From positions 1-14,727 of IMG/VR virus record IMGVR_UViG_651053023_000012: a stretch of 14,727 nt of DNA. One strand, 5' to 3'. Source of the stretch: a virus. Lineage: Duplodnaviria > Heunggongvirae > Uroviricota > Caudoviricetes. Both the position numbers and the translations under genes were made by a program. Below the pieces are notes generated by a model. It did not search any database and was not told the origin of the DNA. It saw only the letters and a list, made by a program, of their open reading frames with translations. This document shows, in pieces, positions 9,377-14,727 of this stretch. Position 1 is the first letter of the stretch; the number at the start of each line of letters is the position of its first letter.

Positions 9377-9532
9377 TTACTCCTCAGGTTCGTAAGCTGT
9401 GAAGACAGCGACCTCCGTCTGGCCGGTTCGGATTCGTACCTCGCAGAGGTCTTTCCTCGTTACCAGTGCCGTCACTATGACGGTTAAACAGATGACGATC
9501 AGGACGATTAACATCGCCTTTTGCTGCTTCAT
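9377..9532 (-). CDS. hokD: Hok/Gef-family type I toxin (HokD/RelF-like), 51 aa.
   Basis: MKQQKAMLIVLIVICLTVIVTALVTRKDLCEVRIRTGQTEVAVFTAYEPEE matches HokD as I recall it with a single substitution. GGAG sits 9 nt upstream of the ATG. Confidence 0.9.
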   Translation of the reverse strand: MKQQKAMLIVLIVICLTVIVTALVTRKDLCEVRIRTGQTEVAVFTAYEPEE

Positions 9533-9740
9533 AGCCTGCTTCTCCTTGCCTTTCGGCACGTAAGAGGCTAACCTAGATTTGCCGTTCATAGATTGAGCCT
9601 CAGATTAATGTTAAGCGTCTTGCAGGACGCGTAATGTTAACTGGGGCTTTTCTCTATCTGCCTTTGGTGTTCATGCCTGAGACAGATAGCCTCAAGCACC
9701 CGCAGCCATTCTACTTAACTCCCGTTACCTCGCCAATATG
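9533..9740 (-). promoter_or_regulatory. hok mRNA leader region (expected site of the mok frame and the antisense Sok RNA in hok/sok-type loci); boundaries are approximate.
   Basis: Inferred from hok/sok locus architecture. An in-frame upstream ATG at 9587-9589 gives a 70-codon frame. I could not map the sok promoter by eye. Confidence 0.35.
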
Positions 9741-10966: not shown

Positions 10967-11112
10967 CGGCTAAATCATACAATCTACGCATGTTCACTTT
11001 CTACATATACCATCTATAATGTCCGCTGTTGGCACAAAGCGGACAACCACGCTAGCTCTACCCTGTGCCACAAAAAGTCAATTTGCATCTGAACTAATGC
11101 ACTTGAATCTCG

Positions 11113-11535
11113 TCACTTCAATAAATACCGAACATCCCCCTGATAAAACGACAATATGCGCTGCATAACTTCACTCTTCCGGCACTCGCGACAGATTATG
11201 TTCTGACGCCTGTCGTAGCGACGTATTTCTCCGTCAGGTAATGACCAGATAAGGTCCGAATCAACCGCAGATGGTTTCTTCAGCTTTGCCCTTGAGAGCT
11301 TTTTACGGGCATTTTGCCAGTCCTTACGCGCCTGTTCAGACGGGAATAACCCGTAACCAGAGTTGTATACATCGCCGCTGGCAACCAGCTCTCTTGCGAG
11401 AACGCTCATCAGATATCTTGTCGCACCTGTTTTGACTTCCAGTTGCCGTAACGTCTCACGCCCACTCTGGCGTACGAGTTCAACAACCTGCCCTTTAATT
11501 TTTTCTCGCTCTTCTTGTGTAAAAACTTTTGCCAC
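11113..11535 (-). CDS. Hypothetical protein, possibly DNA-binding (HTH-like N-terminus); last gene of the replication operon. GTG start.
   Basis: The GTG at 11533-11535 is preceded by AGGAGG with 4-nt spacing. Translation is MAKVFTQEEREKIKGQVVELVRQSGRETLRQLEVKTGATRYL.... No Walker motif, so it is not DnaC-like. Confidence 0.55.
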   Translation of the reverse strand: MAKVFTQEEREKIKGQVVELVRQSGRETLRQLEVKTGATRYLMSVLARELVASGDVYNSGYGLFPSEQARKDWQNARKKLSRAKLKKPSAVDSDLIWSLPDGEIRRYDRRQNIICRECRKSEVMQRILSFYQGDVRYLLK

Positions 11536-11575
11536 AAGTCCTCCTGAAAATTACCTCATGACCAGAAATCAACAC

Positions 11576-12646
11576 TTACCCCCTGAAGCCCGGTGGAATT
11601 TCGGTATCCGGTTCAGAAATATGATTCACACAACGCTGGTTGTTCGTGCCGCTTACCGGGAGCAGCCAGGGGTTTTCAAAATTCCGGTCCGGTCCAAAAA
11701 ACGTCGTCGCTCGCTGAACAAATTCCGTTCCCGTTTTCCCGGTAGCCGCAAGGTATCTTGCGTAACGCCTCACGCCATCCAGCATGGCCTCTGGTGACAC
11801 CCCCTCGCGTAATCTGGCCTTCCAAGCACTGAAAGCGGATTTCTTCGGGTTTGCCCCAGCACGCAACGGGTATTCCCGCCAGACCTGTTCGAACACATCC
11901 GGATAATCCACTCGTCCCACAGGCTGCCCGGTGTTTTCCGGGACTACCCGATCGGCTTCCCGCTGAATGGCGGAATCGGCTTCAGGCTGCTGCAGTTGGT
12001 GTGATTGCTCCGGCCTTGCGGTCATCACCTGCTGCACAGCGCCCGAATCGGCTTTCAGCGCATACGCTGAATCGGCTTCCGGTGTCGTGCCTGCTGGCTG
12101 ACCAAGATTGACGGTCTGAACATCCCCTGCCTGGTTCGTGGCGTTTTTTACGCCATGGACCATAGTGTTTTGATCTTCTTGATCTGTATCTTTATCTGTA
12201 TCTTTATCTGTCGTGACTCGTCGTGACATGTGCGTGACATTTCGTGACGCGCCGTGACAATCGCCATTTTGTTCCCGCTTTCTTTCCCTCTCTCGCTGCG
12301 CCCTCTTGCGCTCTGCAGGAGATTTTGCGGTTTGCGAAATATTGCCGTTGTCCTCTTTAAGCACCTGGCGTTTTTCCCATCCAGTGATTAAATCACCATC
12401 AAGTACCCGCCCCTGCATCGTCTGCAAAATTGAATCAATTACCTCTTCTGTCACGTCGAGCGCACTTGCCAAATCTTCTGTCGTGACATCAATGTGACCT
12501 CGCGTGACATTTCGTGACGCGCTCACCAGGAGGTGGATATACACTGCCATCACTGTTGCAATTGGCTGCCCTGACACCCTGGCAATTGTTCGCCACTTAG
12601 GGTCATTTGGCATGTCATGCCATAATCTGAGCCAGGCGTTAGCCAT
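11576..12646 (-). CDS. Putative phage replication initiation protein (YdaU/O-like) with iteron arrays embedded in the coding sequence.
   Basis: The ATG at 12644-12646 is preceded by GAGGTG. It sits downstream of the Cro-like and YdaT-like genes, as in Rac. Two clusters of GTGAC repeats with 10-11 bp periodicity lie inside the gene. Confidence 0.6.
   Translation of the reverse strand: MANAWLRLWHDMPNDPKWRTIARVSGQPIATVMAVYIHLLVSASRNVTRGHIDVTTEDLASALDVTEEVIDSILQTMQGRVLDGDLITGWEKRQVLKEDNGNISQTAKSPAERKRAQRERERKREQNGDCHGASRNVTHMSRRVTTDKDTDKDTDQEDQNTMVHGVKNATNQAGDVQTVNLGQPAGTTPEADSAYALKADSGAVQQVMTARPEQSHQLQQPEADSAIQREADRVVPENTGQPVGRVDYPDVFEQVWREYPLRAGANPKKSAFSAWKARLREGVSPEAMLDGVRRYARYLAATGKTGTEFVQRATTFFGPDRNFENPWLLPVSGTNNQRCVNHISEPDTEIPPGFRG
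12211..12260. repeat. Iteron-like array A: five GTGAC cores at 10-11 bp spacing, preceded by a 12-bp tandem repeat (tctgtatcttta, two copies) at 12182-12205.
   Basis: tcgtgactcg tcgtgacatg tgcgtgacat ttcgtgacgc gccgtgacaa. It shares the 21-mer gcgtgacatttcgtgacgcgc with array B. Confidence 0.5.
12481..12520. repeat. Iteron-like array B: four GTGAC cores at 10-11 bp spacing, plus an inverted core at ~12450.
   Basis: tcgtgacatc aatgtgacct cgcgtgacat ttcgtgacgc. Confidence 0.5.
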
Positions 12647-12717
12647 ACTCACCTCTTCTGATACCGAATCTTTTTACTCACGAGTTGCCGGAAGTGATTC
12701 GATATGGCTATTATCAC

Positions 12718-13143
12718 TCAATGCACTGCCACAGCATTTCCTGCCGGGCCACCACGGTTCATCTGATTGAAACCGGCGATTGCCACTGCGACAAAATCAT
12801 CAGCGTCTCTCACCAGTCGCTCCCGCGTCTCCACCAGCTCCCGAAAATAAGCTGAACTGTGGCTGCGCATTCTGGCCACCAGCAAAGGTGGCATTGCCTT
12901 TTCGATCGCTGGTAACAACGCCTGAATTTTTTCAACTGCATCAGGGGTGTCTTTCTCTACCCAGCGGAAAATTTTCTGGGTATTGCGAGCCAGGGCTTCC
13001 GGATGGCTGTCGTCATACAGTTCTGGGAACATCATACCCAACTCAAAATAAGCCTGGGTTATTCCAGCCGCCGGAACTTTTTCGCCATCAGGACGCGCCC
13101 AGGCATTCATCGCCATGCGGATGTGTTCATGCTTGATTTTCAT
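12718..13143 (-). CDS. YdaT-like protein (proposed CII-analogue/toxic regulator in Rac-type prophages).
   Basis: The N-terminus MKIKHEHI matches what I recall for YdaT, and the size is ~140 aa. It overlaps the upstream Cro-like gene by 17 nt, as a ydaS-ydaT pair would. Confidence 0.6.
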   Translation of the reverse strand: MKIKHEHIRMAMNAWARPDGEKVPAAGITQAYFELGMMFPELYDDSHPEALARNTQKIFRWVEKDTPDAVEKIQALLPAIEKAMPPLLVARMRSHSSAYFRELVETRERLVRDADDFVAVAIAGFNQMNRGGPAGNAVAVH

Positions 13144-13408
13144 GAATCAAGCTCCTAGAAAGTGGTTGTGTTAACGTTTTGGTATCTTCCAGCTCGGGCC
13201 AAATATTCATCCAATCAAAAGGCCTTAGTTGCTGACGTGTAACTTCACCATTACTGGCTCGCTCAATAAGGACGCATAACGATGCCCCTAACACTTGACC
13301 TTTACTCAATGCCTTTCTTAGATAACCGATGCTGGTACCACACTCGCATGCAAACATACGCTGTTCATCTGACGAAAGAGAATTGAGAAATATTCTTAAT
13401 TCTTCCAT
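13127..13408 (-). CDS. YdaS-like HTH protein (Cro analogue), first gene of the rightward early operon.
   Basis: AAGGAG Shine-Dalgarno. HTH segment CGTSIGYLRKALSKGQVLGASLCVLIERASNGEVT. It is divergent from a repressor gene, with operator repeats between them. Confidence 0.7.
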   Translation of the reverse strand: MEELRIFLNSLSSDEQRMFACECGTSIGYLRKALSKGQVLGASLCVLIERASNGEVTRQQLRPFDWMNIWPELEDTKTLTQPLSRSLIHENQA

Positions 13409-13436
13409 AGCTACTCCTTAGTAAACACAGTAAAGA

Positions 13437-13480
13437 ATACCCACAGGTAAACAAAAGTCAATACCCACAGGTTGTTTACC
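13437..13480. promoter_or_regulatory. Operator-like repeats in the divergent repressor/Cro intergenic region (OR-like).
   Basis: ATACCCACAGG occurs twice (13437-13447 and 13461-13471), with an inverted pair ggtaaaca/tgtttacc. The same ATACCCA half-site recurs in the palindromes at 13971-14008. Confidence 0.45.
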
Positions 13481-13508
13481 TTGCGGTAATCGCATCTATT
13501 ATTTACCT

Positions 13509-13928
13509 ATGGACAAATATGAATTTAGACGACAGCAACTCATCAAAATTCGTGATGAGAAATGCGATGGTAAAGCGGTTAACGTGGCCAGAAAGATCGG
13601 GCGCGAGCCTTCTTATGTATCAAGAATGTTGTACCCAGAGGGGAAAAAGGGAAAAAAACGGATCGCTGATGATATGGTGGAGATTATCGAAGAGTCCTTT
13701 GGGTTACCCCGGGGATGGATGGATGGTATCGTTTCATCATCAACGAACACAGCCTCCAGTTATGAAACAAGGGTTCTAACGCCACGACAACGTATTTTTT
13801 TAGATCTCTTAGACGAACTGCCAGAAAGTGAAGCGGATAACTTATTAAAAACTCTTGAAGAGAAAAAACAGTATTACAATATGATCTACGAAGAAATCCG
13901 TAAAAAGAAAGCACAAAACGCATCATAG
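13509..13928 (+). CDS. Prophage repressor (RacR-like, XRE-type HTH, no obvious S24 peptidase domain).
   Basis: HTH segment AVNVARKIGREPSYVSRMLYPEG. There is no Shine-Dalgarno upstream of the ATG, so the transcript may be leaderless as for lambda cI from PRM. The gene is divergent from the Cro-like gene. Confidence 0.65.
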   Translation: MDKYEFRRQQLIKIRDEKCDGKAVNVARKIGREPSYVSRMLYPEGKKGKKRIADDMVEIIEESFGLPRGWMDGIVSSSTNTASSYETRVLTPRQRIFLDLLDELPESEADNLLKTLEEKKQYYNMIYEEIRKKKAQNAS

Positions 13929-13970
13929 CTCACCAAACAACTAGTCACCAGTTAAGACACCGCAAAAAGT

Positions 13971-14008
13971 TACCCATGGGTATTTACTTTTTAAATACCT
14001 ATGGGTAT
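13971..14008. promoter_or_regulatory. Operator-like palindromes downstream of the repressor gene (OL-like), upstream of the leftward early genes.
   Basis: Perfect 12-bp palindrome TACCCATGGGTA (13971-13982) and imperfect ATACCTATGGGTAT (13995-14008), 25 bp apart. Confidence 0.45.
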
Positions 14009-14193
14009 CCTTCTTTTCATACCAACCCACCCCGCCCCACAGAATGCAGGGCAATACTTCGAGTTACCAGGCAGTGGTCAGGGGTTAAGTAGCCAGCCCG
14101 AGGCGTAAGAACATGACGGCAGGGTTCAACTTTAATAACTATGCAGCAGGTTTTTGTTCCGCTACCCCAGCGTTAAGGGGAAATGAGGTCAGC

Positions 14194-14349
14194 ATGGATA
14201 CTATCGATCTTGGCAACAACGAATCTCTGGTGTACGGCGTGTTTCCCAACCAGGACGGCACGTTCACCGCGATGACGTATACCAAAAGCAAAACGTTTAA
14301 AACCGAAAATGGTGCCCGTCGCTGGCTGGAAAGAAACTCAGGTGAGTGA
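14194..14349 (+). CDS. Small protein, YdaF-like (51 aa).
   Basis: ATG at 14194 preceded by GAGG. Translation MDTIDLGNNESLVYGVFPNQDGTFTAMTYTKSKTFKTENGARRWLERNSGE matches my recollection of Rac YdaF (memory only). Confidence 0.55.
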   Translation: MDTIDLGNNESLVYGVFPNQDGTFTAMTYTKSKTFKTENGARRWLERNSGE

Positions 14350-14350
14350 T

Positions 14351-14479
14351 ATGGATTTCGACACAATCATGGAAAAGGCTTACGAAGAATACTTCGAAGA
14401 CCTTGCCGAAGGCGAAGAAGCTCTCAGCTTCAGTGAGTTTAAACAGGCGCTTTCCAGCTCGGCAAAATCTAACGGCTGA
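14351..14479 (+). CDS. Small acidic protein, YdaG-like (42 aa).
   Basis: ATG one nt after the preceding stop. Translation MDFDTIMEKAYEEYFEDLAEGEEALSFSEFKQALSSSAKSNG. It is below the ORF-track cut-off; assignment is from memory. Confidence 0.45.
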   Translation: MDFDTIMEKAYEEYFEDLAEGEEALSFSEFKQALSSSAKSNG

Positions 14480-14508
14480 TAAGCGAAGTAGCACCGCGAG
14501 GAATCAGT

Positions 14509-14727
14509 ATGCAGAAACGAGAACCCGTCATAATCGCGCCAGACTATACCGATGATGAACTTTATGAGTGGATGCGCCAGAAAATTAATGCAGCGCAGGA
14601 TCTGAAATGGGCTAATGAAGCCAGGGCTAAGCAGGCTGAAAATCTGTCCGCTCTGGAGCAGGATATCACCAATCTGGAAAAAGCAGCGGCATTAAGCATT
14701 GCCAGAATGATTACATACCCGCGTTAA
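14509..14727 (+). CDS. Hypothetical early-left operon protein (72 aa); its stop coincides with the window end.
   Basis: Open reading frame in the same operon orientation as the YdaF/YdaG-like genes. No recognisable motif. Confidence 0.45.
   Translation: MQKREPVIIAPDYTDDELYEWMRQKINAAQDLKWANEARAKQAENLSALEQDITNLEKAAALSIARMITYPR

Follow-up and report, generated by a model that had tools for sequence, protein, structure and literature searches.

The analysed DNA, a stretch of 14,727 nucleotides representing the viral record IMGVR_UViG_651053023_000012 (called the window in the following), carries towards its end a putative lysis/lysogeny immunity region. Three genes were found there. A repressor of 139 amino acids (positions 13509-13928, plus strand), designated here as CI analogue, is divergent from the gene of a Cro analogue with 93 amino acids (13127-13408, minus strand). 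The latter overlaps the gene of YdaT, a CII analogue of 141 amino acids (12718-13143, minus strand), by 17 nt (13127-13143). A divergent repressor facing a Cro-like gene with this 17-nt overlap had already been proposed in a preliminary description of the sequence. The listing of open reading frames (ORFs) confirmed all three genes and RefSeq annotates the same three, the repressor under the name 'hypothetical protein'. The repressor and cro are separated by 100 bp, in which three operator sites lie over promoter-like hexamers of the PR and PRM type.

For the repressor no Pfam family could be detected at E values up to 0.1. This includes Peptidase_S24 (PF00717), and the former statement that the repressor has no S24 domain thus holds for the whole 139 amino acids. 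Furthermore, when Pfam, NCBIfam and PDB were searched with the single sequence and with an N-terminal-domain profile, no significant match placed the DNA-binding domain (residues 1-74; 13509-13730, plus strand; assigned by homology and predicted fold) in a helix-turn-helix (HTH) family. The domain (MDKYE...REPSYVSRMLYPEGKKGKKRIADDM...LPRGWMD) has no sequence relative in Pfam or PDB. The AlphaFold model of the repressor (predicted local distance difference test, pLDDT, 84) contains a helical HTH at residues 3-63, a disordered linker at 77-86 and a helical hairpin at 92-138. At the level of the fold, the DNA-binding domain is predicted to be an XRE-like five-helix HTH. The term 'XRE-type' used in the preliminary description agrees with this predicted fold, but no sequence model matches. 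The term 'RacR-like' had to be rejected: BLASTP against RacR of E. coli K-12 gave E = 2.3, the profile comparison (hhalign) a probability of 0.1%, and the immunity region of Rac contains none of the TACC-N4-GGTA sites described below.

In a database search, residues 1-74 were 65-82% identical to the N-terminal domain of many phage repressors of 218-242 amino acids. These relatives carry PF00717; among them is cI from mEp043, a functional lambdoid phage, with 65% identity in the DNA-binding domain. The C-terminal part (residues ~89-138; 13773-13925, plus strand) forms a helical hairpin of the DicA/PaaR2 type according to homology and predicted fold. Residues 86-136 matched the NCBIfam model of DicA (E = 2.8e-5). 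Residues ~89-134 are homologous to the C-terminal part of DicA of Qin (BLASTP, E = 1e-7), to the PaaR2-type repressor of phage Evi (starting with MQKKE like PaaR2; E = 1e-8) and to CI of phage Tritos. Behind the HTH the helical domain shows the DicA/PaaR2 signature 'LTxxQxxLLxxFxxLPExE...KK'. By these homologies the repressor is a natural hybrid, in which a DNA-binding domain of the mEp043 cI type is followed by a C-terminal domain of the DicA/PaaR2 type replacing the S24 autoprotease. The same DNA-binding domain occurs in S24-bearing forms (218-242 amino acids) and in short forms (133-150 amino acids) with the DicA/PaaR2-type helical domain. The short forms were detected in Escherichia, Yersinia, Serratia, Arsenophonus and Paraburkholderia.

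Several protein clusters consist of repressor versions which are frameshifted in a G4A5G3A7 stretch (13640-13658), within the codons of the DNA-binding domain. In the three assemblies CP041550, CP089254 and JAWPZY01 a run of A8 (positions 5134-5141 of their loci) replaces the A7 of the window (13652-13658). They have a linked T>C exchange at window position 13431 in common and differ in their neighbouring modules; the ORFs of cro, ydaT and dicB are intact. The A8 alleles could stem from a lineage that is truly inactivated, from a hot spot of slippage or from an assembly error in the homopolymer. More speculatively, the A7 run may be a slippage hot spot which makes the supply of repressor, and hence the expression of DicB/DicF, phase-variable.

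The preliminary description had recognized ATACCCA half-sites on both sides of the repressor gene. This motif is present in eight copies in the window, compared with 1.6 expected, and none of 200 shuffled sequences reached eight. Four copies are located at the switch, at 13437 and 13461 and, on the minus strand, at 13977 and 14002. AATACCCACAGGT is an exact direct repeat of 13 nt with a distance of 24 bp, and the palindromes TACCCATGGGTAT and TACCTATGGGTAT are 25 bp apart. The copies at 5866, 9909, 12977 and 13034 are isolated half-sites without partner arm and were treated as chance. The repeats are real and non-random, but judged from the sequence pattern the true operator unit is the 12-bp palindrome TACC-N4-GGTA with five sites instead of four, three in the intergenic region and two downstream of the repressor gene. 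Four exact matches were found in the window at an expectation of 0.04, all of them within the switch region. The two former 'direct repeats' are themselves TACC-N4-GGTA (pseudo)palindromes.

The positions of the five sites (given without strand) relate closely to the promoter-like hexamers. The PR-like promoter (13434-13461, minus strand) consists of the -35 hexamer TTGACT (13461-13456), a 16-nt spacer and the -10 hexamer TATTCT (13439-13434), with 9 of 12 positions matching in the promoter scan. The OR1-like operator TACCCACAGGTA (13438-13449), an exact match, covers its spacer and the first 2 nt of its -10 hexamer. The OR2-like operator TACCCACAGGTT (13462-13473) has one mismatch and a degenerate right arm; it abuts the -35 hexamer of PR. 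The PRM-like promoter (13475-13502, plus strand) is composed of TTTACC (13475-13480), a 16-nt spacer and TATTAT (13497-13502), likewise with 9 of 12 matches. OR2 ends one base upstream of its -35 hexamer and is centred at about -41.5 from the predicted PRM start, i.e. the ATG of the repressor. An exact OR3-like operator, TACCTTGCGGTA (13477-13488), overlaps the -35 hexamer of PRM and was overlooked in the preliminary description. The -10 hexamer of PRM is followed by the ATG after 6 nt, without a Shine-Dalgarno sequence, so that the repressor mRNA is predicted to be leaderless. Downstream of the repressor gene the distal OL operator TACCCATGGGTA (13971-13982) and the proximal one, TACCTATGGGTA (13996-14007), are both exact matches. 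The first abuts the -35 hexamer of a PL-like promoter, the putative analogue of dicBp (13983-14011, plus strand; TTTACT at 13983-13988, 17-nt spacer, TATCCT at 14006-14011); the second covers its spacer and the first 2 nt of its -10 hexamer. Sites and hexamers are in the same register at OL/PL as at PR.

Related loci were examined for the same arrangement. A scan with one genome per species yielded 41 loci encoding the DNA-binding domain, and with mEp043 and the window 43 loci were scored. They belong to Enterobacterales, Aeromonas, Neisseria, Burkholderiales and Xanthomonadales, for example Edwardsiella, Klebsiella, Pantoea, Yersinia, Paraburkholderia and Xanthomonas. About 0.1 exact TACC-N4-GGTA sites are expected by chance per 6-kb locus. 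In mEp043 sites are located at -72, -47 and -32 from the ATG of cI, and a pair with 25 bp distance upstream of N. All three OR sites occur at the same offsets in 30 of the 43 loci, window and mEp043 counted; in the related loci the OR1-like site lies at -71 to -75 and the OR3-like site at -32 to -35 from the repressor ATG. The downstream pair, 25-26 bp apart, was found in 31 of 43 loci (30 related loci and the window). Thus, the OR/OL layout suggested earlier is strongly supported, since its geometry recurs in mEp043 and in most of the loci.

Across the loci the TACC and GGTA arms are invariant and the N4 centre is variable. In the 30 loci OR2 has an invariant left arm and a degenerate right arm, and the TCAA just left of the site is likewise invariant. 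Of the 31 OL pairs, 26 have, following the distal site, a hexamer that agrees with TTGACA in at least four of six positions, and 24 have a hexamer that begins with the final 2 nt of the proximal site and agrees with TATAAT to at least the same extent. These promoter-like hexamers are always directed away from the repressor gene. A TAnnnT hexamer 6-7 nt before the ATG was observed in 17 of the 30 three-site loci (16 related loci and the window), including every three-site locus of Enterobacterales, Arsenophonus and Aeromonas; a Shine-Dalgarno-like motif is absent in 25 of the 30. A divergent Cro homologue with 36-73% identity is encoded in 34 of the 42 loci other than the window, YdaT in none of them. 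This strong phylogenetic footprinting indicates that DNA-binding domain, operators and Cro are a co-inherited unit.

The borders of this unit became visible by comparison with Tritos, a complete Qin-like phage. Its identity to the window is 98.5% in 11018-13155 and 98.2% in 14025-14727. In the interval enclosed by them, only the part coding for the C-terminal domain of the repressor (13812-13927) can be aligned, with 76% DNA identity. From this gap in the alignment follows an immunity-specific cassette of cro, OR, repressor and OL/PL at 13156-14024 (without strand) in a backbone shared with Tritos, nearly the same interval as described before. The right joint (13155/13156) lies within the 3' end of cro and the other edge just beyond PL. 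At the position of the OL pair, Tritos (positions 2840-3050 of its locus) has the GTAC-containing repeats GTACTAAAAGTAC and AAGTACAT, and the shared sequence resumes directly downstream. Presumably, they are the operators of Tritos's own immunity type. With Rac of K-12 only two stretches are shared, the PL leader at 14018-14181 (87%, to the part of Rac downstream of racR) and the ydaT start with its box at 13120-13149 (97%). The relationship to Rac assumed in the preliminary description therefore applies to a part of the backbone; repressor and operators are unrelated.

Residues 1-73 of the Cro analogue, the conserved Cro part, are 73% identical to Cro of mEp043. The protein matches the PDB 'Cro' entries 8C7K/8CO2 (E = 1e-10) as well as PHROG 35. 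It had been named YdaS-like before. Its Cro-like character is supported by PDB and mEp043, but the score for YdaS (PF15943) is 25.8 bits and therefore below the cut-off of 30 bits (mEp043 Cro likewise with 26.0 bits), and the match to YdaS of K-12 spans 28 residues only. The sequence reads AGGAG, the complement of 13413-13417, as Shine-Dalgarno sequence of cro. The last ~9 codons of cro and the 17-nt overlap with ydaT (13127-13155) sit in the backbone shared with Tritos. As Cro of mEp043 has 76 amino acids and the homology ends at residue 73, the tail of the window protein would be a by-product of the recombination joint. The 17-nt overlap, too, seems to be a side effect of the joint and not a device for translational coupling.

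The designation of the next gene as YdaT-like was right. The protein reaches 39.6 bits with PF06254 (cut-off 21 bits) and matches PHROG 163, 'CII-like activator'. It is ~95% identical to PDB 3C4R, ~85% to 8BT1 (YdaT of CP-933P) and 97% to the protein of Tritos, but only 33% to YdaT of Rac. The gene is assigned to the shared backbone and not to the immunity-specific cassette. Its putative operator (OM-type), TTGATTTTCATGAATCAA with the pattern TTGATT-N6-AATCAA (13133-13150, without strand), is an exact and the sole match in the window and spans the cro/ydaT overlap. YdaT of CP-933P is a tetrameric CII analogue recognizing TTGATT-N6-AATCAA at the ydaS/ydaT junction (PMC9986795), and it was reported to be non-toxic (PMC8630535). 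The box in the window is located at the place footprinted for CP-933P YdaT, at the end of ydaS and the start of ydaT. In Rac of K-12 the 30 bp around this box (positions 4679-4708 of the Rac locus) are 97% identical, despite the 33% identity of the YdaT proteins. A consensus scan detected no PRE-like promoter near the box; this result is uninformative, because an activator-dependent promoter is expected to evade such a scan.

The source of the window is E. coli chromosomal DNA, and positions 12600-14200 are 100% identical in two pig isolates. At least 80% of this 1.6-kb region is matched in 812 of 5,426 complete E. coli genomes. Taking all matching records, the majority of the best matches is at least 95% identical. 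According to the RefSeq annotation of the matching genome, the surroundings are a degraded lambdoid prophage of the Qin/DicB type with truncated tail-fibre genes, lysis genes, three tRNAs, a Q antiterminator, RusA, DUF968 and hokD/sok. Along the switch the replication initiator, which follows YdaT and matches PHROG 3729, is succeeded by the immunity region and by ydfA-ydfB-ydfC. These first genes of the PL operon, all on the plus strand and annotated in RefSeq, are ydfA (14194-14349), ydfB (14351-14479) and ydfC (14509-14727). The segment 14194-14727 has a DUF1391 match and is 98.8% identical to ydfA-ydfC of Qin. Past the end of the window the matching genome continues with dicB, an exonuclease and a frameshifted integrase. 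In the genome with 100% identity over 12600-14200, dicB lies downstream of PL, ~2 kb beyond the window end.

An experimentally studied counterpart of the backbone is CP-933P of E. coli O157:H7. For its PaaR2/YdaS/YdaT region PR, PRM, PL, PRE and a leaderless repressor were reported (PMC8630535). Both regions consist of a short repressor without S24, a cro analogue, YdaT and a replication protein, and both have the box TTGATT-N6-AATCAA at the cro/ydaT junction and operator sets at OR and OL. The C-terminal domain of the window repressor is homologous to the PaaR2 type (phage Evi), and the leaderless repressor mRNA shown for CP-933P is predicted here. In contrast, DNA-binding domain, Cro and operators are different; CP-933P has repeats of the type GTTTAGTAA. 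The Cro deposited in PDB, 98.6% identical to Cro of phage Evi, has ~40% identity to the window Cro as counted from the alignment (E = 1e-10). Moreover, no paaA2-parE2 toxin-antitoxin pair stands behind the window repressor, and PL of the window would drive ydfABC-dicF-dicB.

With Qin and Tritos the flanks are 98-99% identical (Tritos outside 13156-14024, Qin over ydfA-ydfC). Their repressors have a homologous C-terminal domain and are likewise short, without Ala-Gly/S24, and PL corresponds to dicBp by position. DicA and CI of Tritos possess a Pfam HTH_3, whereas none was detectable in the window repressor. Operators and cro are unrelated; Qin has lost YdaT, and Rem of Qin has no homologue here. 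The immunity itself resembles mEp043, with 65% identity in the DNA-binding domain and 73% in Cro, and with identical operator core and spacing at OR (three sites) and OL (pair with 25 bp). Differences are the lambda-type cII of mEp043 and its PL, which drives N. As cI of mEp043 has an S24 peptidase domain, it is presumably SOS-cleavable, unlike the window repressor. Rac of K-12 agrees in gene order, in the DUF1391 gene behind PL, in a repressor without S24 and in the PL leader and ydaT start mentioned above. It differs in RacR, which is not detectably homologous, and in YdaS and YdaT, with similarity over 28 residues and 33% identity, respectively. To lambda there is no sequence homology, but three OR sites between divergent promoters, an OR1-OR2 spacing of 24 bp, OR2 at about -42 of PRM, a leaderless repressor mRNA (predicted for the window) and a second operator set at PL downstream of the repressor operon are features in common. 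Unlike in lambda, S24 is absent, OR2 and OR3 are 15 bp apart, two OL sites instead of three were found, and the CII analogue is a POU-like tetramer binding an inverted repeat.

Hence, we consider it highly probable (about 0.85) that the region is the lysis/lysogeny immunity switch of a degraded lambdoid E. coli prophage of the Qin/Tritos type with a hybrid repressor. What was observed directly, and what this reading starts from, are the genes present and their homologies, the positions of the sites, their conservation and the borders of the cassette. As in lambdoid immunity regions, repressor and cro are divergent over an operator with multiple sites, a second set of sites is located at PL, and a CII-type activator and replication genes follow cro. 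We propose that repressor and Cro bind these operators and thereby form a bistable switch. The CI analogue would bind TACC-N4-GGTA as a dimer. OR1 and OR2, 24 bp apart, bracket the -35 hexamer of PR and cover spacer and -10, and their occupation would silence the genes of the Cro analogue and YdaT and those for replication. OR2 at about -41.5 probably activates PRM, which would give the leaderless mRNA, and OR3 over the -35 hexamer of PRM would lead to autorepression when the repressor is abundant. Leaderless mRNAs are known for lambda cI and PaaR2 (PMC8630535). The OL pair (13971, 13996) would shut PL, the dicBp analogue driving ydfABC-dicF-dicB. The Cro analogue, inherited together with DNA-binding domain and operators, presumably occupies the same sites in the opposite order. 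YdaT as CII analogue may drive antisense transcription towards the repressor gene from the box at 13133-13150.

Due to the missing S24 domain, self-cleavage stimulated by RecA is not expected. If induction is still possible at all, it would rely on an antirepressor or on the bistable switch flipping spontaneously. For DicA, repression of dicBp was reported; it is not inducible by mitomycin C and is antagonized by the antirepressor Rem (PMC10448788). PaaR2 octamerizes in solution (PMC8630535). With the C-terminal domain of the DicA/PaaR2 type, oligomerization and looping between OL and OR are therefore plausible for the window repressor as well.

Some points weigh against the proposed switch. 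No antirepressor was found: tblastn with Rem of K-12 gave nothing in the window, the matching genome and Tritos. PL matches the consensus in 8 of 12 positions only, below the threshold of the promoter scan. OR2 and OR3 are spaced by 15 bp, which departs from lambda, and in detail the sites may therefore be filled in another order. As RNA, the OL pair forms a strong hairpin with a T-rich tail behind it and may thus also terminate transcripts from PRM. The prophage is decayed, with insertion sequence (IS) elements in the nearest genome, a frameshifted integrase and truncated tail genes; together with the A8 alleles of the repressor this suggests that the switch may be partly idle in some strains. 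Finally, what we say for this cassette on binding, on promoter activity, on activation by OR2, on a leaderless mRNA and on how the switch is induced is inferred from sequence.

The preliminary description had suggested a possible addiction-like cassette, in which the repressor mainly silences toxic ydaS/ydaT genes, so that its loss kills the cell and the cryptic prophage is fixed. K-12 needs racR for survival, and derepressed ydaS/ydaT kill the cell (PMC5700377, PMC5700373), with YdaT as the toxic partner in Rac (PMC11014345). Furthermore, dicB is located downstream of PL in the matching genome, and high activity of dicBp was reported to be toxic (PMC10448788). However, the YdaT of the window is 33% identical to that of Rac and ~85% identical to the non-toxic, CII-like YdaT of CP-933P (PMC8630535), and, at 73% identity to its mEp043 counterpart, the Cro analogue is a phage cro of the usual sort. 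No match to a toxin family was found for cro or ydaT beyond the historical Pfam names. Jobling argued that YdaS and YdaT are analogues of Cro and CII, not toxins (PMC5917428). As YdaT is absent from all 42 other loci of the cassette, ydaS and ydaT as a pair do not belong to the cassette unit. The same architecture is present in complete phages, in mEp043 with the same immunity type and in Tritos with the same backbone and another immunity. If derepression were lethal, this would be a side effect of a phage switch, more plausibly caused by DicB, DicF and YdfD than by YdaS/YdaT. Tolerated loss of the repressor beside intact ydaS/ydaT had been named before as a refutation, and in at least three assemblies A8 alleles coexist with intact cro, ydaT and dicB. 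They argue weakly against strict essentiality; assembly errors, a second homoimmune copy in trans or frame-restoring slippage are alternatives. Taken together, we regard an addiction cassette as unlikely.

Two further explanations were weighed against the immunity switch. The palindrome pair at 13971-14007 could primarily be the intrinsic terminator of the repressor gene. The terminator scan indicates a stem of 16 bp with a loop of 5 nt and the tail TCCTTCTTTT, the RNA fold has -24.1 kcal/mol (z = -5.3), and no other terminator was found between the stop codon (13928) and ydfA. Yet a hairpin follows from the operator sequence itself, because two copies of a palindrome are necessarily complementary, and the OL core is identical to the OR sites. 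In the 30 related loci the pair lies 69-2168 bp past the repressor stop, compared with 42 bp in the window, usually with a 'loop' of 13-14 nt and no T-run, but with promoter-like hexamers in fixed register. In mEp043 a separate GC-rich terminator is located upstream of the pair. A primary terminator is thus quite improbable; termination would be a secondary role at most. According to the other explanation, the region is a dead relic in a cryptic prophage, keeping the look of a switch after its function was lost. The truncated tail genes, the IS insertions in the nearest genome, the frameshifted integrase and the several frameshifted repressor alleles on record point in this direction. In the window, however, none of the three ORFs, the five operator sites and the promoter hexamers is damaged. 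The region persists in the 812 complete E. coli genomes, most best matches among all matching records are at least 95% identical, and the main protein cluster has 543 member sequences. In addition, experiments have shown activity and bistability for the switches of Qin and CP-933P, whose prophages are just as defective (PMC10448788, PMC8630535). We give the relic little credence.

Beyond the immunity switch as such, it is possible that DNA-binding domain, TACC-N4-GGTA sites in OR1-2-3/OL order and cognate Cro constitute an undescribed immunity type, very widespread in Gamma- and Betaproteobacteria, with an interchangeable sensor half of the repressor. We put this forward tentatively and rate it below an even chance. 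In a literature search neither a published analysis of the mEp043 operators nor a phage operator of the TACC/GGTA type was found, which is no proof that the operator is undescribed.

Some observations were made elsewhere in the window. At 9377-9701 an ORF for the hokD toxin was found together with a sok antisense RNA in full length (Rfam RF01794, 110 bits). This type I toxin-antitoxin pair is a candidate for prophage stabilization, and a more conventional one than ydaS/ydaT. A cluster of three tRNAs (4672-4981, minus strand) with Gly-TCC, Thr-TGT and a CAT anticodon (Ile according to RefSeq) lies between the region of the Q antiterminator and the lysis genes. Rfam IS009 (RF02111, 230 bits) was matched in full length at 41-239 (minus strand), inside the remnant of a tail-fibre assembly gene. 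The ORF at 702-2132 (minus strand) and the M15 peptidase (endolysin) at 3176-3559 (minus strand) have one peptide of 22 residues in common. The shared peptide, DUF1441 and tail-tip fragments point to a deletion or recombination scar by which unrelated prophage pieces were fused.

The switch is of an ordinary kind, and the general picture of lambdoid switches is unchanged. A precise and testable map of operators and promoters is now available for an immunity type that ~800 complete E. coli genomes contain. This type would control an operon with dicB, as seen in the matching genome; the same operon carries dicF in Qin and Tritos. It is thereby connected with control of cell division and with phage resistance. 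A likely mis-annotation can be corrected, as the repressor is listed as 'hypothetical protein' and the 'toxin' names of Cro and YdaT are unsupported by the literature on close homologues. If the undescribed type is true, it would represent a natural experiment, in which an SOS-cleavable switch came under the control of an antirepressor or of spontaneous bistable flips. One DNA-binding domain and one operator set, combined with two different C-terminal domains, may be used to study the evolution of the induction mode independently of DNA specificity.

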